Assembly: GCA_039588075.1 (NCBI GenBank)
Contig: JBDHAL010000048.1
Span: forward strand, 1 to 34,792
Length of the DNA stretch: 34,792 nucleotides
Origin: Gemmatimonadota bacterium
Lineage (GTDB): Bacteria > Gemmatimonadota > Gemmatimonadetes > Palauibacterales > KS3-K002
Reading direction: 5' to 3'
Positions 521 through 29,922 of the stretch are shown here, piece after piece. The notes beneath the pieces are model-generated. The model was not told where the DNA came from, searched no databases, and was given only the letters and a program-made list of their open reading frames with translations. Made by a program: the position numbers and the translations under genes. Numbering within the stretch: position 1 is the first letter of the stretch; the number at the start of each line of letters is the position of its first letter.

Positions 521-752
521 CTAGACATCGGGTCGAACATCGAACATCGTTCATCGAGCATCGAACGTCGATAGCCGCGGCGCTCCGCGCCTTCGACATC
601 AAACTTCCAACTTCGAACAACGGAAACATCGGCCATTGAACTGGTAGCCTCGATGTCCGATGTTCATCTATCGATGTTCGATGTTTCCGCCGTCGGGCAG
701 TATTCTCGAAGTTCGATGCTCGATGAACAATGTTCAATGTTCACTACGATAT
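521..752. repeat. Block of TCGAACATCG / CGATGTTCGA decamer repeats in both orientations, forming an imperfect palindrome between the GGDEF gene and the S58 peptidase gene
   Basis: At least 8 copies of (T)CGAACATCG or its reverse complement are visible, e.g. gtcgaacatcgaacatcgttcatcgagcatcgaacgtcg and, on the other arm, cgatgtccgatgttcatctatcgatgttcgatgtttcc. The block is AT-richer than its surroundings. Confidence 0.6.
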
Positions 753-3990: not shown

Positions 3991-4672
3991 ATGGCTAGTT
4001 CACAAGGAAAGTTCTACGCCCTGCTTGGCGCGGTTCTCGTCGCCGGGGTGGCGCTGATCGGATACGTCGCCGTGAACAAGAACAGGCGAGCGGTAGCCGA
4101 TGCCGCCGAGACGGCGGCGGCGCTTCCCGCCATGCTCGCCGAGGGCGAGTTGGTCGGTGAAGACGTTGGGGTCGCCATGGGGCCGGAAGACGCGCCCGTG
4201 ATCATCCACGAGTACGCCGATTACCAGTGCCCCTACTGCGGTATGGTCGCCACCCTGACCCTGCCGCAGATCTTCGAGGAATACGTGCAGACCGGAAAGG
4301 CCCGCTTCGTCTTCTTCGATTACCCGCTCAATCCCGGCGCCTCCGAGATCGGTGCCGAGGCCGCCCGCTGTGCCATCGACCAGGACGCCTTCTGGGCGAT
4401 GCAGAAGGTGCTGTTCGGCCGCATGCAGGAGTGGGGGACCAAGCCGCGAGTACGCCGACGCCCTGGGGCTCGACGGCGGCGCGCTGCTCGAGTGCATGGA
4501 CTCGCACAAGTACCGCGATGTAGTGATGGCGAGCCAGCTGCGGGCGCGGCAGCTCGGCCTCAACAGCACGCCGACCTTCTTCATCAACGGACAGCTCGTG
4601 CCGGGGGCCAAGAGCTACGACCAGATGAAGGCGATCATCGACGAGGAGCTGGCCAAGGTTGAATCGCCGTAG
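3991..4672 (+). CDS. DsbA-like thioredoxin-fold thiol:disulfide oxidoreductase; the frame is interrupted by an apparent 1-nt frameshift near 4432-4441 (pseudogene or homopolymer error)
   Basis: N-terminal signal anchor, then DYQCPYCGMV (CPYC active site). The DsbA-like C-terminus EYADALGLDGG...NSTPTFFINGQLVPGAKSYDQMKAIIDEELAKV continues in the +1 frame (track ORF 4352..4672). The junction lies at gtgggggacc; deleting one G restores ...QEWGPSREYADALGLD. RBS AGGAGG lies 10 nt upstream of ATG 3991. Confidence 0.75.
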
Positions 4673-5123
4673 AGCTATCGCCGTACTCGCCCTGCTGGGC
4701 GTTCTCGACTCGGCCTACCTGCTGCTGGCCAAGCTCGGATACATCGGCGGCCTCGCCTGCGGGATCTCGCACGGCTGCGACACCGTCAATGCTTCCGTCT
4801 ACTCGCAGTTCCTGGGGCTGCCGGTGGCAGGTATCGGACTGCTCGGCTACCTGGTGCTGCTCGCCCTCGCGATAGTCGGCACGCAGCCGCACTACGTCGA
4901 GGATCGGCGAATCGACAAGTTGATCGCTACGCTCTCAGGTTTTGCGGTCGCCTTCACGCTATATCTGACGTACGCCGAGCTGTTCATCCTGCGGGCCGTT
5001 TGCCAGTGGTGCGTCATATCACAGATAGCGATACTGGCCATATTCGGCCTGGCGGTGTGGGGGCTTTTGCAGGCGGGGAGAAAGGATTCGACATCGGTCA
5101 GCGGTCAGTCGGGGCTCGACTAG
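4659..5123 (+). CDS. Vitamin K epoxide reductase (VKOR) family membrane protein, a DsbB-like partner for DsbA
   Basis: Loop cysteine pair CGISHGC followed by S.Y..FLGLPVAGIGLLGY. TYA motif and CQWC (CxxC) sit in a transmembrane helix. The start overlaps the DsbA stop. The last ~12 codons are encoded by palindromic repeat copy A. Confidence 0.8.
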   Translation: MNRRRAIAVLALLGVLDSAYLLLAKLGYIGGLACGISHGCDTVNASVYSQFLGLPVAGIGLLGYLVLLALAIVGTQPHYVEDRRIDKLIATLSGFAVAFTLYLTYAELFILRAVCQWCVISQIAILAIFGLAVWGLLQAGRKDSTSVSGQSGLD

Positions 5124-5264
5124 CGGCGAAAGAGGCAACTATCAACCTCCCACCGCGGCTGCGCGACATCGGACGGTTGTAGGACGTAGGACGTGGGGCG
5201 TTGGACGTCGAGCGACGCCTCTTTCGCCCGCCGTCGAGCCCCGGCTGACCGCTGTCCGATGTCC
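5089..5264. repeat. Palindromic MITE-like element, copy A, about 176 bp
   Basis: ...gacatcggtcagcggtcagtcggggctcgactagcggcgaaagaggc...gcctctttcgcccgccgtcgagccccggctgaccgctgtccgatgtcc. The left and right arms are reverse complements (stem about 45 bp). It is nearly identical to copy B at 8121-8289. Confidence 0.85.
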
Positions 5265-5292
5265 AAAAAAAAAGAGCGGGCAAGCCCGCTCT
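5265..5292 (-). terminator. Rho-independent terminator for the minus-strand sigma factor gene; the hairpin may also act bidirectionally
   Basis: aaaaaaaaagagcgggcaagcccgctctctt: on the minus strand this reads as a GC hairpin (gagcgggc...gcccgctc) followed by a T9 run, immediately downstream of the stop at 5302. Confidence 0.7.
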
Positions 5293-5301
5293 CTTCTATC
5301 A

Positions 5302-6168
5302 TCAGGAAGGCGCCCAAAATCCTTCAAGCGCCTGCCCGTCAGGCGATTGGCGTAGCTTCTCGAAGGCACGATTGCGAATCTGCCGGATCCGCTCCCGCGT
5401 CACCCCCAACAACGACCCGATCTCCTCCAGCGTCATCTCTTCGCCGTCGTCCAGCCCGTAGTAGAGGACGAGGATCTTGCGCTCGCGCTCCGTCAGGTAC
5501 TTTCGGAACATCTCCTGGAGAAAGTGCCGCCGCGCCTGGAACTCGACCTCGTCCTGGATGTCGTCGGTCTCCATGCCGGAGAACCGCTCGCCGAACGAGG
5601 CGCTGTCCCGGTCGGTCCGATCCAGCGGCGCGTCGAGGCTCAGCTCGGCCGAGGCCACGCGACGCAGCGCCCGGATCGTCTGCACCGGCTCGCCCATGCG
5701 GTCTGCGATCTCGCGATCCGTCGGCGTCCGGCCCAGCTGCTGCGTCAGCGCCGTCTCCGTACGCGACAGCTTCACCAGGTTCGAGTTCTGGTTCAGCGGG
5801 ATCCGTACCGACCGCGTCTGTTCCGCCAGCGCCTGCAGCACCGTCTGCCGGATCCACCAGACCGCGTAGGAGATGAACTTCACTCCCTTATCGGGATCGA
5901 ATTTCTTGACCGCCTTGAGCAGGCCCTCGTTTCCGATGCAGACCAGCTCGGCCAGGTTCAGGCCTCGACCCTGATACTTCTTAACGTACGAGATCACGAA
6001 TCGAAGGTTCGCCGTCACCAGCCGCTCGGCTGACTTGCGGTCGCCGGCACGTGCCTTACGGGCGATCTCTCGCTCCGTCGCGGCGTTTTCGATTAGGGGG
6101 TACTTCTCGACGTCGTGAAGGTACTGGTCGAAGGAGTCTAAGGCCTTTGAGCTGAAGAACATGCCCAC
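5302..6168 (-). CDS. RNA polymerase sigma-70 family factor (group 2/3, RpoS/RpoH-like size, 288 aa)
   Basis: Region 1.2 YLHDVEKYPLI. Region 2 ERLVTANLRFVISYVKKYQGRGLNLAELVCIGNEGLLKAVKKFDPDKGVKFISYAVWWIRQ. Region 4 MTLEEIGSLLGVTRERIRQIRNRAFEKLR. Confidence 0.9.
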   Translation of the reverse strand: MGMFFSSKALDSFDQYLHDVEKYPLIENAATEREIARKARAGDRKSAERLVTANLRFVISYVKKYQGRGLNLAELVCIGNEGLLKAVKKFDPDKGVKFISYAVWWIRQTVLQALAEQTRSVRIPLNQNSNLVKLSRTETALTQQLGRTPTDREIADRMGEPVQTIRALRRVASAELSLDAPLDRTDRDSASFGERFSGMETDDIQDEVEFQARRHFLQEMFRKYLTERERKILVLYYGLDDGEEMTLEEIGSLLGVTRERIRQIRNRAFEKLRQSPDGQALEGFWAPS

Positions 6169-8066: not shown

Positions 8067-8120
8067 GCGGTGGTGTAGCATTCTGGCGGTTTTTGTGCAA
8101 GTGCTTGATTTGGGGGATTT

Positions 8121-8289
8121 GGACATCGGACAGCGGTCAGCCGGGGCTCGACTAGCGGCGGAGGAGGAAGCTATCAACTGCCGACTGCGGACGCGTGACA
8201 TCGGACGATCGTACGATGTAGGTCGTTGGGCGTCGAGCGACGCCTCCTTCGCCCGCCGTCGAGCCCCGGCTGACCGCTGTCCGATGTCC
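8121..8289. repeat. Palindromic MITE-like element, copy B, about 169 bp
   Basis: ggacatcggacagcggtcagccggggctcgactagcggcg...cgccgtcgagccccggctgaccgctgtccgatgtcc. Same orientation and subfamily as copy A. Confidence 0.85.
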
Positions 8290-8295
8290 AAATTC

Positions 8296-8829
8296 TCACT
8301 TCCTCGACCGGCCCCGCATCCCCCGCACCCGCTCCAGGTCATAATCCCTCACGACCGCCGGCGGCCACCCACCCGCTTCAACCTTCATGATTAACTGCGA
8401 AAGCGTTTCCCGCGCTCGAGCCGCCGCCACTTCATCAATCCATCCATTGTCCACCGCCTCATCAAACTCGTCCTGATCCAGCACGCGATGGTTCCCCTCC
8501 AGGTCGACCCAGAGATCCAGGTAGAGGTCGTACATCGTCCAGGTACTGCGATCGAGATCCGGGGGCGCTATGAGGTTTACGTAGTACCCGGTATGCGTCC
8601 CGTCGCTCAGGTGGAAGCGGCCCACATCGTACCATTCGCCGGGGAAGACGAACCATACGATCGGGGAGCCGGGCTCGTAGATCAGCCGATCGGCGATGTA
8701 GAGCTCGGAAGTCAGTGGAGTGTTCTCGTGCAGGGTGACCTTGCAATCGTCTTGGTCGACGACGAGGTCCTGAACGAAGATGTCCATCCGGTTGGGCGGT
8801 CGGTGGTAGTGGATTTCGATTTCGGGCAT
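8296..8829 (-). CDS. DUF402-family protein (FomD-like nucleotide-phosphatase fold)
   Basis: YDLYLDLWVDLEGNHRVLDQDEFDEAVDNGWI matches the conserved Y.DL.LD......D.DE core of DUF402. The assignment is made from motif memory only. Confidence 0.6.
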   Translation of the reverse strand: MPEIEIHYHRPPNRMDIFVQDLVVDQDDCKVTLHENTPLTSELYIADRLIYEPGSPIVWFVFPGEWYDVGRFHLSDGTHTGYYVNLIAPPDLDRSTWTMYDLYLDLWVDLEGNHRVLDQDEFDEAVDNGWIDEVAAARARETLSQLIMKVEAGGWPPAVVRDYDLERVRGMRGRSRK

Positions 8830-8850: not shown

Positions 8851-10977
8851 TCAGGAGGGGTAGAACGACGAGCGCTCGGTCAGCCCCGTCGCGGGCTCGA
8901 GTCGCGCCGATACGCTGCTGGCGTAGTGGCGCAGGCGATCGGCCACGTGGTCCAGGCCGAGGTGGTCGGCGTAGCGCAGCAGGCCGCCGCGGAAGGGCGG
9001 GAAGCCGGTGCCCATGATCATGGCGACGTCGAGGTTCTCCGGTGAGCTGACGACCCGATCATCCAGCGTGCGCGCCGCCTCGTTGATCATGGCCAGGACC
9101 ATGCGCTCCTCCGCTTCGCCTGATCCGGGCGGCTCTCCTTCGGACGCCTCGCGAAGCACGGCCTCGATCTCGCTGTCCGTGCCTTCCGCTTTGCCATCGC
9201 TGTAGCGGTAGAAACCGCGGCCGCCTTTGCGGCCGCTGACGCCGGTGGCCAGGACGGTCCCGACGATGGGAGCCGGCTGAAAGCGCTCGCCGAACCCCGA
9301 AATCATTGTCTTGCTCACCTCGGCGACGACGTCGAGTCCGATCTCGTCCAGCAGCCGCGCCGGCCCTACCGGCATGCCGAAGCGGGTCATGACGCGGTCC
9401 AGCTCCTTGACGGTCATCCCTTCCTGCAGCAGGTACCCCGCTTCGGTGAGATAGGCGGCGAGCACGCGGTTGACCACGAAGCCGGGCGAGTCTTTGACGA
9501 TGATGGGCGTCTTGCCCAGGCGAACGGCGATCTCGAACGCGGTGGCTAGGGCGTCGTCCGACGTGGCCGCGCCGCGCACCACCTCGACCAGGGGCATGCG
9601 GAAGGGGGGGTTGAAGAAGTGAAGCCCGCAGAGGCGATCGGGCCTCTCCAGCTCCTCCTGCAGCTTGGAGATAGACAGCGCCGATGTGTTGGTGGCGATC
9701 ACCGCGTCGGGGCGCAGGAAATCCTCCAGCGCGCTGATCACCATCTTCTTCACGTCGAGCCGCTCTACCACCGCCTCCACCACGGCGTCCACGGTGTCGA
9801 ATCCGTCGTAGCTCACCGCCCCGCGAAGACAATCGACACGAGCCTGCAGGTCTTCCGAAGACCAGCCGGACCGCTCGCCCGCTTTCTCCAACAGCTCGCG
9901 CGCACGCTCGATCCCGGCCTCGACCCGCTCGGGGTCCACGTCGACGATCTTGACGGGCACGTTCTGGTAGGCGAACAGCTCGGCGATCCCGGCCCCCATC
10001 ACGCCGGCCCCGACGACCGCGGCGCGCCGCACCGTCGCCGCCTCACCGTCGGGCACTCGCTTGCGGGCGCCCTCGGTAAGCTGGAAGACGGCGATCAGGT
10101 TCTTGGACTCGGTCGTGACCGCCAGCCGCCCGAAGGCTTCCGCCTCCTGCTCGTACGCCTTTTCCGGCGCGACGGAGAGGCTGCTGACGACGACCTCGAC
10201 GGCGGCCGGTAGCGCCGGGTAGTGACCCCTGGTGCGGGCGAGCACGGCCCGGCGCGTCAACTTCTTGATGATCCAGCGGGCGGCCGGACCGTCCTCGAGC
10301 AGTCGCGCCACGGTGGAGCGAAGATGTCGCCGCAACGGCGTCTTCCCGCGGGCGAAACCGGCGGCGAGAGCGGCAACCTCGTCGTCGAAAGCCTCGGCGG
10401 ACAGGATGCGGTCGACAAGCCCGAGCTCGCGGGCGCGGTCGGAGTTGATCTGCCTTCCAGAGAGGATCAGGTCGAGTGCGGCCCGGAGCCCGATCAGGCG
10501 CGGCGTTCTCACGGTGCCACCCAATCCCGGGACGAAGCCCAGTCGGGTCTCGGGGAAGCCGAAACGCGTCTGTGCGTGATCGCTGGCGACCCGGTAGTCG
10601 CAGGCGAGCGCCAGCTCTAGGCCGCCGCCCACACACACACCGTTGATCGCCACCAGCGTCGGCACCGACAGCCGCTCGAGCCGCTTGAAGATGGCCTGCC
10701 CGCGGCGCGAGATCTCGCTCGCCGCCGCCGCCGACTCCAACCCGGCCAGCTGATCGATGTCGGCGCCCGCGATGAAGTTGCCGGGCTTGGCGCTTTGCAC
10801 CAGCAACGCCCGGACTTCTCCACGGCCGGCCGCCACCTCGACCGACGCCAGGTGCGACTCCAGACGGACCATGACCGGATGGGTCAGCAGGTTCACCTTC
10901 GAGTCGGGGCGATCGAAGGTGATCGTCGCTAGACCGTCCGCGATTTCGAATCGGAGGTCCGGAACCTGCTCGGTCAT
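8851..10977 (-). CDS. fadJ: Fatty-acid oxidation multifunctional protein: enoyl-CoA hydratase plus 3-hydroxyacyl-CoA dehydrogenase (FadJ/FadB type)
   Basis: Crotonase region ...NFIAGADIDQL...GGGLELALACD. NAD-binding motif VVGAGVMGAGIA. C-terminal 3HCDH region. The start is set at MTEQVPDLRF (ATG 10977, GGGAG RBS); the track's 60-aa upstream extension is rejected. Confidence 0.9.
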   Translation of the reverse strand: MTEQVPDLRFEIADGLATITFDRPDSKVNLLTHPVMVRLESHLASVEVAAGRGEVRALLVQSAKPGNFIAGADIDQLAGLESAAAASEISRRGQAIFKRLERLSVPTLVAINGVCVGGGLELALACDYRVASDHAQTRFGFPETRLGFVPGLGGTVRTPRLIGLRAALDLILSGRQINSDRARELGLVDRILSAEAFDDEVAALAAGFARGKTPLRRHLRSTVARLLEDGPAARWIIKKLTRRAVLARTRGHYPALPAAVEVVVSSLSVAPEKAYEQEAEAFGRLAVTTESKNLIAVFQLTEGARKRVPDGEAATVRRAAVVGAGVMGAGIAELFAYQNVPVKIVDVDPERVEAGIERARELLEKAGERSGWSSEDLQARVDCLRGAVSYDGFDTVDAVVEAVVERLDVKKMVISALEDFLRPDAVIATNTSALSISKLQEELERPDRLCGLHFFNPPFRMPLVEVVRGAATSDDALATAFEIAVRLGKTPIIVKDSPGFVVNRVLAAYLTEAGYLLQEGMTVKELDRVMTRFGMPVGPARLLDEIGLDVVAEVSKTMISGFGERFQPAPIVGTVLATGVSGRKGGRGFYRYSDGKAEGTDSEIEAVLREASEGEPPGSGEAEERMVLAMINEAARTLDDRVVSSPENLDVAMIMGTGFPPFRGGLLRYADHLGLDHVADRLRHYASSVSARLEPATGLTERSSFYPS

Positions 10978-11958: not shown

Positions 11959-12528
11959 ATGTCCCACGCCTGGTCCGGGTCACGAGCGCTGGCGGCGATT
12001 GCGGCGGCGTCGCTGTTGGGCGGCTGCGGCTATGGGAGGATCCAGGAGCTGGACGAGGCGGTGCTGGAGGCGCGCTCGGAGATCGAGGTGCAGCTGCAGC
12101 GTCGATCGGCGCTGGTGCCGAACCTGCTGGAGACGGTGCAGAGCTACGGAGCGGTGGCCGAGGAGGTGATCGCGGGGGTGGCGGATGCCCGGGCGGGGCT
12201 TGTGGGGGCGGTGCGGTCGGGGCAGCTGCCGGGGATGGAGACGGCGAGCGCGGAGCTGTCGGGGGCGTTGGAGGAACTGCTGACGGTGGTGAGCCGGACT
12301 CCGGCCCTGGACGACGACCGCGGTTTCCGGTTGCTGCGGTCGCAGTTGGAGCAGACGGAAGAGATGATCATTCAGGCGGGCCGCAGCTACAACGAGGCGG
12401 TGCGCCGTTACAACGACTTCATAGAGCAGTTTCCTCAGATGGTAACGGCCAAGGTGATTGGGGCGGAAGCGCTCGAGTTGTTCGAGCCCTGGGATGGGCC
12501 GGCTTCACTGTCCTCGGCCGACGAGTAG
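11959..12528 (+). CDS. lemA: LemA-family protein, membrane- or lipid-anchored
   Basis: Start at MSHAWSGSRALAAIAAASLLGGCG. The LemA core SYNEAVRRYNDFIEQFPQMVTAKVIG matches the conserved RYN...FP...A motif. Confidence 0.8.
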   Translation: MSHAWSGSRALAAIAAASLLGGCGYGRIQELDEAVLEARSEIEVQLQRRSALVPNLLETVQSYGAVAEEVIAGVADARAGLVGAVRSGQLPGMETASAELSGALEELLTVVSRTPALDDDRGFRLLRSQLEQTEEMIIQAGRSYNEAVRRYNDFIEQFPQMVTAKVIGAEALELFEPWDGPASLSSADE

Positions 12529-12533
12529 GGCGT

Positions 12534-12776
12534 TCAGAGCAGGATTCTCTTCACCAATTCCAGCCCGATCAACACGATCAGCGGCGAGAGATCGATGCCC
12601 GCCGAGACCGGAAAAGCCTTCCGCACGGGCTCCAGCACCGGGTCGGTCAGCTTGTTCAGAAGGTCGATCGCCTGGTTCGACGTGGTGGGTGAAGTGAACC
12701 AGGAGAAGATCGCTCGCAGGATTATTAGGCCCTCGTAGAGGGTGATGAGTGCGACCAGCAAACCGGCGATTCCCAA
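12534..12776 (-). CDS. yggT: YggT (Ycf19) family membrane protein of about 80 aa; TTG start at 12776 after a GAGGA RBS
   Basis: LGIAGLLVALITLYEGLIILRAIFSWF...LTDPVLEPVRKAFPVSAGIDLSPLIVLIGLELV is the canonical YggT pattern (iflsW...P.l.P.R...P..gg.DlSPl). The track's Thr/Val-rich N-extension is encoded by the GACAAC repeat and is rejected. Confidence 0.7.
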   Translation of the reverse strand: MGIAGLLVALITLYEGLIILRAIFSWFTSPTTSNQAIDLLNKLTDPVLEPVRKAFPVSAGIDLSPLIVLIGLELVKRILL

Positions 12777-12860
12777 GGTTTTATCCTCGCTTGCGTCGGG
12801 GGTGGTTGGTTTTGGTCGGTGGACACTACGTCCGCGGGTTGCCGTGTGTTTCACTGTATC

Positions 12861-12980
12861 GACGACGACAACGACAACGACAACGATAAGACAACGACAG
12901 CGAGAAACGAGAAATCTCGCCGCCGGCCATGCCTTTTTCTCGTTTCTCGCTGTCGTTGTCGTTGTCGTTACCGTTGTCGT
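12861..12980. repeat. Long perfect hairpin built from GAC/AAC trinucleotide repeats, located in the divergent yggT / hemQ-Rieske intergenic region
   Basis: Left arm: gacgacgacaacgacaacgacaacgataagacaacgacagcgagaaacgagaaa. Loop: tctcgccgccggccatgcc. Right arm: tttctcgtttctcgctgtcgttgtcgttgtcgttaccgttgtcgtc. The inner 25 bp are perfectly complementary. GC content here is well below the genome average. Confidence 0.75.
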
Positions 12981-13092
12981 CAGTAGCACCAGAGAACCGC
13001 AACAAGCCGAAATCGGTTCTAACTAGATGGGAGAAAGCGCCGGTTGCCAGCAGCGGGCCGCCCTTGGGCAAGAACTAAGAGAAGGAGCAGCA

Positions 13093-14136
13093 ATGTCGGG
13101 CAAGGAAGAGAAGCGTCAGCTCGTCCGCTACCTGTTCTTCAAGCTGGACCCGGCGTGGCGCCGGCTGAATCTGGACAAGCAGATCGACCAGAAGATCGAA
13201 CTGGGCGACACGATCCGGGGCTTTCAGGCGAAGTCGCTTCTGCGGTCGTACAGCCTGATGGGTACGCGTGGCGAGGTCGATTTCATGCTGTGGCAGGCGA
13301 CGGAGGATCTGGAGACGCTGCAGGCGCTGGAGACGTCGATCTTCTCCACGCGGCTCGGGGCCTATTTTTCGACCCCGTACAGCTACCTGGCGATGACCAA
13401 GCGGTCGATCTACGACTTTCCCGATGACCCGGAGCATGACGACCGAATCGCCGTTCGGCCGCAGGATTCCCGGTACCTGTTTCTGTACCCGTTTACCAAG
13501 ACCCGCCCCTGGTACAAGCTATCGCACGAGCAGCGCCAGGAGATGATGAGCGAGCACGTGCGCGTCGGCCGCAAGTATCCCGACATCCGGATCAATACCG
13601 CCTACTCCTTCGGCCTCGACGACCAGGAGTTCATGGTCGGCTTCGAGGGCGACGACCCGGGCGCCTTCCTCGACCTGGTGATGGAGCTGCGCGAGAGCGA
13701 CGCTTCGGCCTACACGCTCGAGGACACGCCCATTTTCACCTGCATCCAGATGTCGCTCTGGGACGTCCTCGACTCGCTGGGCGGCGCCTCCGTGTCCGAG
13801 CAGGCGCGCGCCGCCGAGCGCGACGCCGACGGCTTCGTGCTCGCCGCGTCCGTGGCCGAGCTGCCGCCCGGCGCCTCGAAGCGCGTCTATAACGGCGCCG
13901 ACGCCATCGCCCTGTTCAACGTGGATGGGACGTTTTACGCCGTCAGCGACCGCTGCACCCACGGCCGCGCTTCTCTGAGCGAGGGCAGCGTGGACGCGAA
14001 GGAGTGCGTGCTCAACTGTCCGTGGCATGGAGGCAAGTTCGATATCAAGAACGGCGAACCGGCCGGCGGGCCGGTGCGGGCGGCGATCAAGACGTATCGC
14101 GTGAAGGTCGAGGGGGAGAATGTGTTGGTTGGTTGA
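13093..14136 (+). CDS. hemQ: Coproheme decarboxylase (HemQ/ChdC, chlorite-dismutase family) fused to a C-terminal Rieske [2Fe-2S] domain
   Basis: AAGGAG RBS before ATG 13093. HemQ hallmarks: VRYLFFKLDPAW, VDFMLWQATE, YLFLYPFTKTRPWYKLSHEQRQEMMSEHVRVGRKY, YSFGLDDQEFMVGFEGDDP, DLVMELRESDASAYTLEDTPIFTC. After residue ~250, Rieske box I CTHGRASL and box II CPWHGGKF (CxH...CxxH, 17-aa spacing). Confidence 0.85.
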   Translation: MSGKEEKRQLVRYLFFKLDPAWRRLNLDKQIDQKIELGDTIRGFQAKSLLRSYSLMGTRGEVDFMLWQATEDLETLQALETSIFSTRLGAYFSTPYSYLAMTKRSIYDFPDDPEHDDRIAVRPQDSRYLFLYPFTKTRPWYKLSHEQRQEMMSEHVRVGRKYPDIRINTAYSFGLDDQEFMVGFEGDDPGAFLDLVMELRESDASAYTLEDTPIFTCIQMSLWDVLDSLGGASVSEQARAAERDADGFVLAASVAELPPGASKRVYNGADAIALFNVDGTFYAVSDRCTHGRASLSEGSVDAKECVLNCPWHGGKFDIKNGEPAGGPVRAAIKTYRVKVEGENVLVG

Positions 14137-14140
14137 TTAG

Positions 14141-14230
14141 GTGAACATCGAACATTGAGAATACGCCCCGATGTTGAACGTCGGACCTCGAGGCCGGGAC
14201 GTTGAACGTCGAGGCGTGCTTCGATGTTCA
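14141..14230. repeat. Palindromic element with GAACATCGAA arms, related to the 521-752 decamer block
   Basis: gtgaacatcgaacattgag...cgatgttgaacgtcg...gacgttgaacgtcgagg...cttcgatgttcac. The outer 12-bp arms are perfect reverse complements. Confidence 0.6.
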
Positions 14231-14262
14231 CAAAAAAAGAGCGGGCAATGCCCGCTCTTTTC
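14231..14262 (-). terminator. Bidirectional intrinsic terminator, strong on the minus strand, for the M23 peptidase gene; also closes the hemQ-Rieske gene
   Basis: caaaaaaagagcgggcaatgcccgctcttttcc: a GC hairpin (agagcgggc/gcccgctct) flanked by A7 on one side and T4 on the other. The hairpin is nearly identical to the one at 5265-5292. Confidence 0.7.
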
Positions 14263-14286: not shown

Positions 14287-15264
14287 CTAATCAACAATGA
14301 CCTTAGATAACCGGTAATTATCCGGGTTCACGGCTCGCCCATTCTGCAGCACCTCGTAATGTACGTGCGGTCCCTTGGCCAGGCCGCTGCTGCCCACGAG
14401 GGCCACGGTATCGCCACGACGCACGCTGTCGCCCACCTTCACTTTGAGGTTCTTCTCGTTGTGCGCGTAGCGGGTCTTGAGCCCGTTGCCGTGGTCGACC
14501 TCCACCGTCCAGCCGAAGCCCGGGCGCCAGCCAGCATACGTCACCTGGCCGTCGGCGGTCGCCACGACCGGCGTGCCGCGGGGGGCCGAGATATCGATGC
14601 CTTCGTGGGGACGGCGAATGTTCAGGAGTGGGTGCCAGCGGCTGCGGCTGAAGGAAGAGCTGAGCCACCCGTTGGTCGGGTCGATCGACGGGTAGGTCAC
14701 CAGCTCATCGCGCCGGGTCTCCATCGCCCGAGATGCCTCGACCAGGCTCGCCTGCAACAGGTTCGACTGCCGAAGCAGGCGGTTCAGGTCGCCGGTCGCG
14801 GCGAATACCTCGCCGCCCAGCGCCGGATCCAGCTCCAGCAGTGGCTCGCTCTCGATCGAGCCGGTTCCCGGTCCGCCGATTCCCACCTGGCGAACTTCCG
14901 GATCGAGCTCGGGCAGCCCGGCTAATAGACGAAAACGACGATCCCTCTCAGAGATCGTCGTCATCGACTGCGTCAATTGGTCCACCGTCTCCTGCATTCG
15001 CGCCACATCGGCCACCAACAGCGAGTTCTCTTGCTGGAGCTCTGACGCCTTCGCCAGGTCTCCTAGCTTGAGGATCAGCGCGCCGCTGGCCACGAAGATG
15101 AATAGGAGAACGGCTGCGACCGCCCCGGCGGCGTAGCGTAGCGTACGTTGCGAAATGTGCAGCGTATGCGCAGGCCGCGAAGGGTCTGTGATTACTAGGA
15201 ACGTCAGGCGGTTTCGTTCCATCCGCGCTCGTTCAGAGTTTTCCTGGTTCAAAAGCGCGCCCAC
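14287..15264 (-). CDS. M23-family (LytM-domain) metallopeptidase with an N-terminal transmembrane anchor and coiled coil (EnvC/NlpD-like); start at 15264 or 15222
   Basis: HEGIDISAPRGTPVVATADGQV...GWTVEVDHGNGLKTRYAHNEKNL...GDTVALVGSSGLAKGPHVHYEV contains the HxxxD and HxH catalytic motifs. N-terminal transmembrane segment AAGAVAAVLLFIFVASGALIL. Confidence 0.85.
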   Translation of the reverse strand: MGALLNQENSERARMERNRLTFLVITDPSRPAHTLHISQRTLRYAAGAVAAVLLFIFVASGALILKLGDLAKASELQQENSLLVADVARMQETVDQLTQSMTTISERDRRFRLLAGLPELDPEVRQVGIGGPGTGSIESEPLLELDPALGGEVFAATGDLNRLLRQSNLLQASLVEASRAMETRRDELVTYPSIDPTNGWLSSSFSRSRWHPLLNIRRPHEGIDISAPRGTPVVATADGQVTYAGWRPGFGWTVEVDHGNGLKTRYAHNEKNLKVKVGDSVRRGDTVALVGSSGLAKGPHVHYEVLQNGRAVNPDNYRLSKVIVD

Positions 15265-15778
15265 CGGTCTCGTCCAGTGACAGTTAAATCCAGGCAGTTC
15301 AACCCGCCTGGTTTTTCAACGGCTTACCGATGGAGGAGGGGCAGGCGCCACGTTAACGCCAAGGGGCAGGACTGTCAAGCCACCGCACCAGCAGATAGAG
15401 TTTGCAAGGTCTGTTCCCACCTTACCTACAGCCCATAAGCTCATATACTACAACGACTTCGGGTTTTCTCTCCCCCTGCCAATCACCCCAAAAATCGGTA
15501 ATAATTACCCATCTTTTAGGCATTTTTGACCGCCTCTGGCCCTTCCACGCCGCGTTACTGCCGGTGATCGGTAACCGGTAATCGGTGATCGGTAACCCCT
15601 TTTCCCCCACCGGTTACACGGGATCTCCACTACCTGTACGGGTGACCGAATAGGCCAGCACGATCGGGGGTACTCTTAAGTAGTAGAAGGCTGATCGCTG
15701 AAGTTGCGCCAAGCCTCGGACACCGGCAGAATAGACCCGTCCCACCCAATCGCGCGGTCCGCCACCAGGAGAAGGCTC

Positions 15779-17750: not shown

Positions 17751-17919
17751 GGACATCGGTCAGCGGTCAGCCGTCGCTCGACGCCCAACGAAAGAGGCGG
17801 CTGTCAACGCCCGACTTCCGATTGTCCGACGTCCGATTTCCCCGGACGTTGGGTGTCGGGAGTCGATAGTCGCCTCTTTCGTTAAGCATCGAGCGACGGC
17901 TGACCGCTGACCGATGTCC
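17751..17919. repeat. Palindromic MITE-like element, copy C, about 169 bp
   Basis: ggacatcggtcagcggtcagccgtcgctcgacgcccaacgaaagaggcggctgtcaacgcccgac...gtcgatagtcgcctctttcgttaagcatcgagcgacggctgaccgctgaccgatgtcc. The 20-bp terminal inverted repeats are perfect. Confidence 0.85.
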
Positions 17920-18789: not shown

Positions 18790-19056
18790 CAGCGGGCTCA
18801 GCGGCGCCTACAACGAATCCGGGTCGGGGAAAGGCGGAACACGAAAGCCGAGCCGCGCCGTGGCTCGCCCCCGCCGGCGCAGATGCGCACGCTACGGGAA
18901 ACATCCGCCGGCTCGGTCTCCGCAGGCGCCTCCGGCTCCGGCTCGACGGGCACGGCGGGCTGGACCGGCGCGGGACCTGGTTCTTCGGGCGGCGGACCTG
19001 GAGGCACCGGGCGCGGGCAGGCAACCAGAAGAACGCACAAGGGGGGAATGATGAGC

Positions 19057-19226
19057 CGGACAGCCGACAGCCGACAGCCGTTGATCGACGCATCAACGAA
19101 AGAGGCGACTATCGACGCCCGACTACCGAGCCCCAACGCCCGTCGGACGTAGGAAGTCGGAAGTCGGAAGTCGATAGTCGCCTCTTTCGTTAAGAGTCGG
19201 TTGTCGGCTGTCGGCTGTCGGCTGTC
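19057..19226. repeat. Palindromic MITE-like element, copy D, about 170 bp, with (GACAGCC)3 terminal repeats
   Basis: ggacagccgacagccgacagccgttgatcgacgcatcaacgaaagaggcgactatcgacgcccgac...gtcgatagtcgcctctttcgttaagagtcggttgtcggctgtcggctgtcggctgtcc. Its core is shared with copy C. Confidence 0.85.
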
Positions 19227-19253
19227 CGTCTAAAAACTTCCCAGGTTAGAAGT

Positions 19254-29848: not shown

Positions 29849-29922
<74 letters not shown>

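Follow-up and report, generated by a model that had tools for sequence, protein, structure and literature searches.

The hairpin described here lies between two divergently transcribed genes on a 34,792-nt contig of a Gemmatimonadota bacterium (JBDHAL010000048.1), which was analysed at its full length and is called the window (about 35 kb) below. The genes are yggT on the minus strand and, on the plus strand, a gene encoding a HemQ-like Chlor_dismutase domain fused to a Rieske domain (hemQ-Rieske, hereafter also hemQ). Both flanking genes and the divergent intergenic site agreed with the original prediction, which had been made from the sequence of this locus. The genes and the proposed promoter are located as follows.

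12534..12776, minus strand: yggT coding sequence, TTG start at 12776 after a GAGGA ribosome-binding site (Pfam YGGT, E 1e-19; JGI call of 80 aa)
13093..14136, plus strand: coding sequence of the Chlor_dismutase (HemQ-like)+Rieske fusion (Pfam E 1e-55 and 5e-19; 755 homologues at E <= 1e-100)
12827..12853, minus strand: putative ECF-sigma-type yggT promoter with -35 TGAAAC (12853..12848), a 17-nt spacer and -10 CGTA (12830..12827), present in 18/18 orthologous spacers

The motif TGAAAC-N17-CGTA was found on the minus strand of every one of the 18 orthologous spacers, always with 17 nt of unconserved sequence between the two boxes, and it had no occurrences beyond those 18 in 228 kb searched on both strands. 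SigW-type ECF promoters of B. subtilis carry the same boxes, TGAAAC at -35 and CGTA at -10 (PMC5758882), and we take the motif to be the yggT promoter, of the ECF type. The hairpin begins 7 nt upstream of its -35 box and therefore lies outside the transcript from this promoter, which excludes a structured leader for yggT, one of the roles first proposed for it. Scanning positions 12600-13200 for a sigma-70 promoter returned none, and a manual look for a hemQ promoter downstream of the hairpin gave no clear candidate. On the other side of yggT, 5 nt separate the end of lemA from the yggT stop codon, and no strong terminator follows lemA. Only a tRNA at 29849 passed the Rfam thresholds in the whole window, and no transposase-like domain was found among its genes.

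The hairpin is an imperfect palindrome of about 130 nt in the yggT/hemQ-Rieske spacer, in which two degenerate GACAAC arrays mirror each other around a shared inner stem of non-repetitive sequence. Its parts, none of which has a strand of its own, are listed below.

12853..12984, no strand: whole palindrome including the outer ACTG/CAGT pairs (RNA and DNA folds; three identical assemblies)
12860..12914, no strand: left arm, a degenerate (CGACAA)n hexamer array followed by the inner CGACAGC-GAGAAAC-GAGAAA (Tandem Repeats Finder, autocorrelation and sequence)
12915..12935, no strand: 21-nt GC-rich central spacer, or loop, TCTCGCCGCCGGCCATGCCTT (repeat search)
12936..12981, no strand: right arm, a (TCGTTG)n array that is the reverse complement of the left arm with the unit variants in the same order (Tandem Repeats Finder and inverted-repeat pairs)

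Over their innermost 25 nt (12890-12914 and 12936-12960) the arms show 100% complementarity, and they stand 21 nt apart, so the location of the inverted repeat between the two start codons was as predicted, but the loop is 21 nt long rather than 19. The stem is interrupted by one 5-nt bulge (GATAA, 12885-12889) and one 2-nt mismatch. Folding energies were -81.3 kcal/mol for the plus-strand RNA, -87.9 kcal/mol for the minus-strand RNA and -52.8 kcal/mol for DNA, with z-scores of -10.0, -10.4 and -10.5, respectively, and 0/200 shuffles folded equally well, which bears out the claim of a very stable stem. The minimum-energy structure accounted for only about 3% of the ensemble, and inverted-repeat pairs showed that the arms also pair in registers shifted by 6 or 12 nt because they are repetitive. 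Tandem Repeats Finder reported, at period 6, 7.5 copies of CGACAA at 12860-12903 and 5.7 copies of the complement TCGTTG at 12947-12980, together with a weaker period of 3. Autocorrelation of the arms peaked at lag 6 (0.67 and 0.65, p < 0.001 against shuffles) and reached 0.54 at lag 3. The GAC/AAC trinucleotide arms of the first description are thus better described as hexamer arrays (CGACAA/TCGTTG) with a 3-nt sub-period. Perfect tandem GACAAC units number only three per arm, the overall array match being 82-84%, and the inner stem CGACAGC-GAGAAAC-GAGAAA resembles heptamers. The two arms contain identical unit variants in identical order, the non-repeat part CAGCGAGAAACGAGAAA included. GC makes up 53% of the hairpin, 65% of the window and 71% of the 21-nt central spacer; the hairpin is AT-richer than its surroundings, although "far AT-richer" overstated the difference.

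An ordinary terminator had been doubted from the start, and an intrinsic terminator was rejected here: no T-run follows either arm, the terminator scan was silent at the hairpin, and both neighbouring genes point away from it. The Rfam search proposed at that stage matched the hairpin to no family at the gathering threshold, and in E-value mode it gave generic miRNA-precursor-like matches at about half the threshold on both strands.

The hairpin is base-for-base identical in two further JGI contigs (Ga0452216_004531 and Ga0452215_337948; samples 3300041086 and 3300041080), which were located through an identical HemQ-Rieske protein (P0001) and through a JGI-annotated 81-aa ORF across the hairpin (P0121; 12826-13071, minus strand). 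Outside the hairpin, both contigs differ from the window by SNPs and several indels. Because three independent assemblies are identical over the hairpin, it is not an assembly artefact of collapsed repeats, as had been considered. That the feature could instead be protein-coding was suggested by the JGI gene call and by one plus-strand frame, rich in Thr and Val, that reads TTTTTTTT...VVVVVV. The 81-aa ORF is a low-complexity translation of both arms; it has no Pfam domain and no relatives among 5.8 billion proteins except on its own three contigs. A thr-type attenuator with a leader peptide was also rejected, for the one start available to the Thr-run frame is a GTG antisense to yggT, the frame has no start codon or ribosome-binding site outside that antisense region, and the downstream gene is Chlor_dismutase-Rieske rather than a threonine biosynthesis gene. 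Artefact and coding sequence together are extremely improbable as explanations of the feature, and annotators should avoid calling the 81-aa ORF over the hairpin, as JGI did.

No length variation of the hairpin was seen among the three assemblies, which come from at least two samples and among which rare variants would escape detection at n=3. A phase-variable (contingency) repeat, the first idea for the trinucleotide arms, is not supported for this hairpin, given the same absence of length polymorphism and its three perfect units per arm. The idea held in part, as comparable arrays and hairpins in the same lineage do change by whole units (see below); phase variation fits the class and is hypothetical for the hairpin itself. 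The perfect match between the assemblies could also reflect selection.

Orthologous spacers were compared for 17 genomes (the window genome and 16 others), which gave 18 spacers. The closest loci belong to Gemmatimonadota MAGs with 78-86% amino-acid identity, including Ca. Kutchimonas denitrificans (L012) and, at 86% identity, a sister species to which contigs L094 and L095 belong. All these relatives keep the divergent yggT/hemQ arrangement, and the hairpin was found in none of the 16 other genomes with the yggT/hemQ-Rieske pair. The nearest of them (about 85% amino-acid identity in HemQ-Rieske) lack it as well, and no intermediate stage of it was seen among them. The promoter boxes are invariant across the 18 spacers while the adjoining slot, from the yggT -35 box to the hemQ ATG, is hypervariable, ranging from 23 nt (L001) and 27 nt (L007) up to 239 nt in the window. 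In two genomes, L012 and L013, the slot holds hairpins with arms of 7-nt period (z -5.6 and -4.1) that are unrelated in sequence to the one studied here; in L094/L095 it holds an unstructured direct GGTAGTA array, and in L006 an unstructured direct array of three copies of AATAGAAC. Twelve genomes have neither hairpin nor array there. L094 and L095 are 99.56% identical overall, yet they differ by exactly 42 nt in the slot, which corresponds to 10 versus 4 GGTAGTA units. From these contents of the relatives' slots it follows that short-unit arrays gather at this place, where they gain or lose whole units and in some cases occur as mirrored pairs. Judged by sequence comparison, the hairpin is apparently not a required control element, because no orthologue has it, and the proposal of a conserved regulator site or leader is not supported, given its absence from 16/16 other genomes and a slot of 23-239 nt.

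Two functional readings have to be weighed against this variability. The first is a functional RNA hairpin, situated in a long hemQ-Rieske leader or in read-through from lemA to hemQ, where it would serve as a substrate for RNase III or as a roadblock, with expression tuned by the number of repeats. The missing sigma-70-like promoter between the hairpin and hemQ and the 23-27 nt slots of L001 and L007, which leave no room for a promoter, both suggest that hemQ may be transcribed from further upstream, in which case the hairpin would lie in the leader and might be functional. The short distance from lemA to yggT without a strong terminator is in line with this reading, as are the size of the duplex (about 50 bp, that of an RNase III substrate), the array of variable copy number at the same place in the sister species, and a precedent in the hmw 5'-UTR of H. 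influenzae (PMC12721329). It is nevertheless quite unlikely: no orthologue has kept the hairpin, in seven relatives the slot is instead home to a canonical TTGACG-N17/18-TAGAAT (or TAGTAT, TACAAT) promoter, the three assemblies show no variation in length, and similar elements occupy every type of spacer in the window.

The second reading, and a very unlikely one, has the hairpin act at the DNA level: it would either form a cruciform or present a palindromic array of sites to which a regulator binds, coupling the divergent promoters of yggT and hemQ. Its position 7 nt from the yggT -35 box and the DNA folding energy of -52.8 kcal/mol speak for such a role, and divergent transcription generates negative supercoiling, which favours cruciform extrusion. 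Against it, a 6-bp repeat does not keep step with the turns of the DNA helix, and the sequence is missing from every orthologue; one would expect a regulator site to have been kept, as the invariant promoter boxes were. A long GC-rich central spacer opposes easy extrusion, and the 21-nt spacer of this hairpin, at 71% GC, would disfavour nucleation of a cruciform.

The hairpin has company. At least seven further hairpins with periodic arms were found in the 35-kb window, at least eight counting the one in the yggT/hemQ spacer, and the following sister elements were delimited, none with an assigned strand.

533..742, no strand: hairpin with heptamer arms (TCGAACA) between GGDEF and S58 peptidase genes, identical in L096 and L097
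5087..5266, no strand: copy 1 of a palindromic family of about 170-190 nt with a 7-nt period; gives the VKOR gene its last codons and stop
8117..8293, no strand: copy 2 of the same palindromic family of about 170-190 nt (alignment)
14140..14232, no strand: GAACATC-type hairpin between the hemQ stop codon and the native terminator (-47.9 kcal/mol)
15559..15598, no strand: left arm only (CCGGTAA, 5.3 copies), the right arm being seen in L093
17751..17919, no strand: copy 3 of the family, filling the convergent Band_7/PGA_cap spacer (alignment)
19043..19242, no strand: copy 4 of the family, with terminal unit CGACAGC and inner unit GTCGGAA (alignment)

All sister hairpins peaked at lag 7 in the autocorrelation, and the yggT/hemQ hairpin alone peaked at lag 6. 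The window contained eight lag-7 segments, each within an intergenic hairpin, where shuffles lead one to expect 0.05; segments with lag 6 or lag 9 in other parts of the window fell in coding DNA. By the k-mer anti-diagonal method, the window had 14.4 long hairpins per 100 kb, other Gemmatimonadota loci had 0.6 and loci of other phyla 2.1, and hairpins with periodic arms amount to about one per 4-5 kb in this Gemmatimonadota lineage. The sister elements sit in divergent, convergent and tandem spacers, often a few nucleotides from stop codons, and because all three spacer types are occupied, these hairpins have no single functional context. Whole-unit and whole-arm changes were observed among them: L099 carries exactly three extra heptamers in the element at 14140 (a population variant), and L093 has a 48-nt right arm (ACCGATT, 5.4 copies) that is absent from the window at 15630. 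The element at 533, like the yggT/hemQ hairpin, is invariant, here between L096 and L097. Single control loci from Acidobacteria (L039), Nitrospira (L070), Planctomycetota (L065) and Omnitrophica (L075) also contained hairpins with heptamer arms, and the architecture is therefore not limited to one phylum; lag-7 segments in the control loci numbered 4.7 per 100 kb.

Two further interpretations of the sister elements were rejected. The near-identical terminators at 5275 and 14239 are not parts of the elements, as L002 has the hemQ terminator without any element. A CsrA-type reading of GGA motifs in the heptamers was dropped since the motifs are base-paired and are absent from the yggT/hemQ hairpin.

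Four of the sister elements, at 5087, 8117, 17751 and 19043, align with one another over about 170-190 nt, and 16 of the 60 stem pairs in this family show compensatory changes on both sides. Searching with nhmmer recovered the four copies and a fifth member just downstream of hemQ in another genome, at a non-orthologous site (L025, E 3e-11). The copy at 5087 interrupts two JGI contigs, L093 and L096, which stop within it, as would be expected of repeated sequence. A truly dispersed palindromic family thus exists in the window, and together with the presence or absence of the yggT/hemQ hairpin among orthologous spacers it suggests that this hairpin, too, might be a miniature non-autonomous mobile element, MITE- or REP-like, inserted beside the yggT promoter and with other copies elsewhere in the genome.

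The sequence comparisons make this unlikely. The family profile did not match positions 12853-12984 even at E <= 10, and local alignments of the hairpin to every other element in the window stayed at noise level (z < 2). A metagenome scan for the 19-mer GACAGCGAGAAACGAGAAA gave 13 matches, all of them chance occurrences in unrelated low-GC contexts, and did not return the source contigs themselves. Scans of viral contigs with the apical stem of the hairpin and with the terminus of the four-copy family gave no matches. The 35-kb window, the fetched loci, the metagenome and viral scans and the protein database yielded no second copy of the hairpin, its 81-aa ORF being without relatives in that database. 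That the hairpin is single-copy is a weak conclusion, one drawn from the 35 kb of the source genome that was searched and from a metagenome scan that missed the source contigs. Terminal inverted repeats distinct from the arrays are lacking in the hairpin sequence; its flanks, CACTGTAT and TAGCACC, contain no direct duplication that would mark a target site, the whole element being a palindrome, and no transposase gene lies nearby. Each of the unique hairpins (TCGAACA, CCGGTAA, CGACAA) would moreover need a mobilising system of its own. REP sequences are palindromes of 20-40 nt with a GTAG-type head, high copy number and an associated RAYT transposase gene; the present element measures about 130 nt and lacks such a head, and none of the window's genes encodes a transposase-like domain. 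Palindromic interspersed elements more broadly, such as REP/BIME, ERIC, the Correia elements of Neisseria, RUP and other MITEs, are imperfect palindromes of 100-200 nt that crowd near the ends of genes in intergenic DNA. The family of four copies in the window behaves like them, whereas the yggT/hemQ hairpin has low-complexity arms, no defined terminal repeats and no second copy that we could find.

We consider it somewhat more probable than otherwise that the hairpin is a young, lineage-specific inverted pair of simple sequence repeat (SSR) arrays that originated in place and has no required function. It is most likely a by-product of replication slippage and strand copying rather than a conserved gene switch. 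Replication slippage would first have grown a short-unit array in place; intrastrand template switching (fold-back copying) would then have duplicated the already diversified array in inverted orientation, and continued template switching would keep the two arms matched. The same process, or a later spread of its products, may have given the genome its other hairpins with periodic arms. We infer the inverted copying because the arms share their unit variants, the order of these variants and the non-repeat inner part, which independent expansion of two arrays does not predict. Slippage is visible in the lineage because L094 and L095 differ by 6 units, L099 by 3 heptamers and L093 by one 48-nt arm. 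The plain array in the same slot of the sister species is counted as further support for growth in place. On the other side, the four-copy family and its member in L025 show that similar hairpins can spread, so an insertion could also have placed this one. Any effect of the hairpin would be structural, lengthening or insulating the divergent control region, or transcription entering from upstream would produce a duplex of about 50 bp in the hemQ leader. The element appears to be tolerated rather than required.

Template switching, together with quasipalindrome correction, is described as creating and maintaining hairpins and homogenising the arms of inverted repeats, including near promoters (PMC8794818, PMC13100816, PMC7202029). 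The documented events are mostly short, from a few to tens of nucleotides, whereas the hairpin would require the copying of a diversified array of about 50 nt.

The hairpin joins a kind of element that has already been described, the inverted pairs of intergenic SSR arrays. It has a long intergenic stem in which both arms are tandem arrays of a 6-7-nt unit, and, as in Xanthomonas, two arrays of the same unit lie on opposite strands, close together, in non-coding DNA. Xanthomonas genomes contain 70-75 inverted pairs of GGGAATC arrays each, which are able to fold into stem-loops, differ in length from species to species and lack an assigned function (Rehm et al. 2015, PMC4692102). The likeness extends to the convergent orientation of two short-unit arrays capable of forming a stem-loop or cruciform, to abundance within a lineage, to variability between close relatives and to the lack of an established function. 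The differences are equally plain: Xanthomonas uses one G-rich unit genome-wide, with G-quadruplex potential, whereas the hairpin is built from a hexamer without G-tracts and its sequence is unique to the locus; unlike the Xanthomonas arrays, its arms share a non-repeat inner stem and its sister elements each have a different unit. The Xanthomonas repeats are also under-represented between divergent genes (Rehm et al., PMC4692102), which is where the hairpin sits.

Heptamers are given as the commonest unit of long SSRs in bacteria, an observation attributed to polymerase slippage (Mrazek 2007, as cited in PMC4679880). As far as these accounts describe them, long SSRs with units of 5-11 nt (Mrazek et al. 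2007) and the TAACTGA repeats of Beggiatoaceae (PMC4679880) resemble the hairpin in being intergenic, lineage-specific and made of short units, mostly of 7 nt, for which growth by slippage was proposed; unlike it, they are presented as direct repeats, often directly upstream of start codons, and not mirrored into long hairpins. In the hmw1A 5'-UTR of H. influenzae, an SSR-based hairpin is cut by RNase III and serves as an expression dial that repeat number can tune (PMC12721329). In both cases an SSR in front of a gene contributes an arm to a long hairpin. The hmw SSR pairs with a G-rich region that is not a repeat, and transcription, cutting by RNase III and phase variation are established there, whereas the present hairpin is known from its sequence and showed no length variation. 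A literature search for repeats or heptamers in Gemmatimonadota returned nothing relevant. The STRR heptamers of cyanobacteria are likewise intergenic direct repeats of short units with lineage-specific abundance, and they are not mirrored.

A bolder reading would treat mirrored hairpins of 6-7-nt units as a distinct class of intergenic element, actively generated by slippage and fold-back copying, sometimes spread, and co-opted as terminators without a U-tract, as insulators or as RNase III sites; the hairpin would then be the hexamer variant that tunes the yggT/hemQ control region by its unit number. We put this forward only tentatively and regard it as rather unlikely.

For the locus itself, these results mean that the hairpin is not to be taken as a conserved riboswitch, a regulator site or a proven phase switch for hemQ or yggT. 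For the lineage, the window shows short-unit repeats turning into long hairpins, with plain or mirrored arrays according to species, steps of whole units, and gain or loss of an arm. Metagenome assemblies break at such hairpins. Should the class turn out to have a function, for example as terminators without U-tracts in GC-rich genomes, operon prediction in poorly studied phyla would have to take it into account. The yggT/hemQ hairpin is of modest interest alone, and the density and diversity of such hairpins in this Gemmatimonadota lineage are the stronger lead.

Promoters in and next to the slot, the hypervariable stretch from the yggT -35 box to the hemQ ATG, were compared across the orthologous loci. 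A TGAAAC-N17-CGTA motif was found upstream of yggT in all 18 orthologous spacers (the window, L001-L015 and the sister-species contigs L094 and L095), with the length of N17 constant throughout and its sequence unconserved, and no further match beyond these spacers occurred in 228 kb. A canonical sigma-70 promoter lies about 45-50 nt 5' of hemQ in seven relatives (L002-L005, L008, L014 and L015), with TTGACG or TTGACC boxes, a spacing of 17-18 nt and TAGAAT, TAGTAT or TACAAT, while no recognisable sigma-70 promoter was detected upstream of hemQ in the window, L001, L007 or L094. In L001 and L007, the yggT -35 box is just 23-27 nt from the hemQ ATG. On the other side, lemA (+) and yggT (-) are convergent, their stop codons being 5 nt apart (12528-12534) with no terminator between them, and the two transcripts should therefore each run antisense into the other gene. 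An 81-aa 'hypothetical protein' in the JGI annotation was rejected as a real gene, as it is the translation of both arms of the target hairpin and nothing more, without homologues among 5.8 billion proteins; it is a spurious gene call.

Features between yggT and hemQ in the window
12781-12805, + strand: weak terminator-like site, past the lemA/yggT convergence
12827-12853, - strand: ECF-type (SigW-like) promoter of yggT, TGAAAC-N17-CGTA, conserved across orthologous spacers
12826-13071, - strand: JGI 81-aa 'hypothetical protein'

In the sister species, the slot is occupied by a direct GGTAGTA array (L094 9895-9964, L095 303-328). The two contigs are 99.56% identical, yet one carries 10 units and the other 4, a length gap of exactly 42 nt. 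Just 3' of hemQ, two relatives contain short GGGGATTC/GATTCGGG 8-mer arrays (L008 7045-7073, L014 1907-1932), which are similar to GGGGATT/GGGAATC, the G-quadruplex-forming repeats of Nostoc and Xanthomonas. The L008 locus (CP070812) also includes two masked stretches, N runs of about 100 nt at about 4547-4646 and about 9256-9355.

Besides the target, seven long intergenic hairpins with 7-nt-periodic arms were found, all within the first 20 kb of the window, and the unit differs from hairpin to hairpin (e.g. TCGAACA, CCGGTAA, GAACATC and CGACAGC/GTCGGAA).

Hairpins with 7-nt-periodic arms in the window
533-742
5087-5266, palindromic family
8117-8293, palindromic family
14140-14232, just downstream of hemQ
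15559-15598
17751-17919, palindromic family
19043-19242, palindromic family

The sister-species contig L094 has two related heptamer-arm hairpins (14583-14672 and 15380-15460, with units such as CAACAGT and CAACGTT) on either side of an OMP beta-barrel gene. The window genome lacks this gene and in the equivalent position carries the hairpin at 17751. Heptamer-period arms were also seen in hairpins of Omnitrophica, Acidobacteria, Nitrospira and Planctomycetota loci, and the unit of the L075 hairpin, GCGACAA, is similar to the target's CGACAA.

Heptamer-period-arm hairpins in comparison loci
L075 (Omnitrophica), 5022-5102
L039 (Acidobacteria), 8502-8733
L070 (Nitrospira), 11990-12125
L065 (Planctomycetota), 5217-5416

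Length variants between the window and other contigs fell both at hairpins of the window and within genes. A 48-nt indel at 15630/15631 corresponds to 10503-10550 of the JGI contig L093, which there holds the complete right arm of a heptamer hairpin (ACCGATT, 5.4 copies) missing from the window; either the arm has really been deleted or the assembly went wrong at this hairpin. Relative to L099, a contig from another sample, the hairpin immediately 3' of hemQ shows a 21-nt indel in its left arm (14159-14168) that amounts to exactly three heptamers, GAGCATC GAGCATC GAACATT. Within the PGA_cap gene, a 40-nt indel (18870/18871 versus L093 13791-13830) leaves the window frameshifted into ORFs of 288 and 152 aa, compared with a 356-aa product in L093; the allele in the window is perhaps a pseudogene, or the assembly is wrong at this point. 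The Thioredoxin_4/DsbA-like gene differs from that of the JGI contig L096 by a 20-nt internal indel (about 4436-4443), with products of 223 aa in the window and 233 aa in L096.

The four palindromic hairpins constitute a dispersed family of about 170-190 nt, with compensatory changes at 16 of the 60 stem pairs and no Rfam match. Another Gemmatimonadota MAG has a fifth member on the 3' side of hemQ (L025 229-378). Both L093 and L096 terminate within the copy at 5087. The VKOR gene (4659-5123) takes its final ~12 codons and its stop codon from the left arm of this element (5087-5123), and the element has therefore replaced the original 3' end of VKOR.
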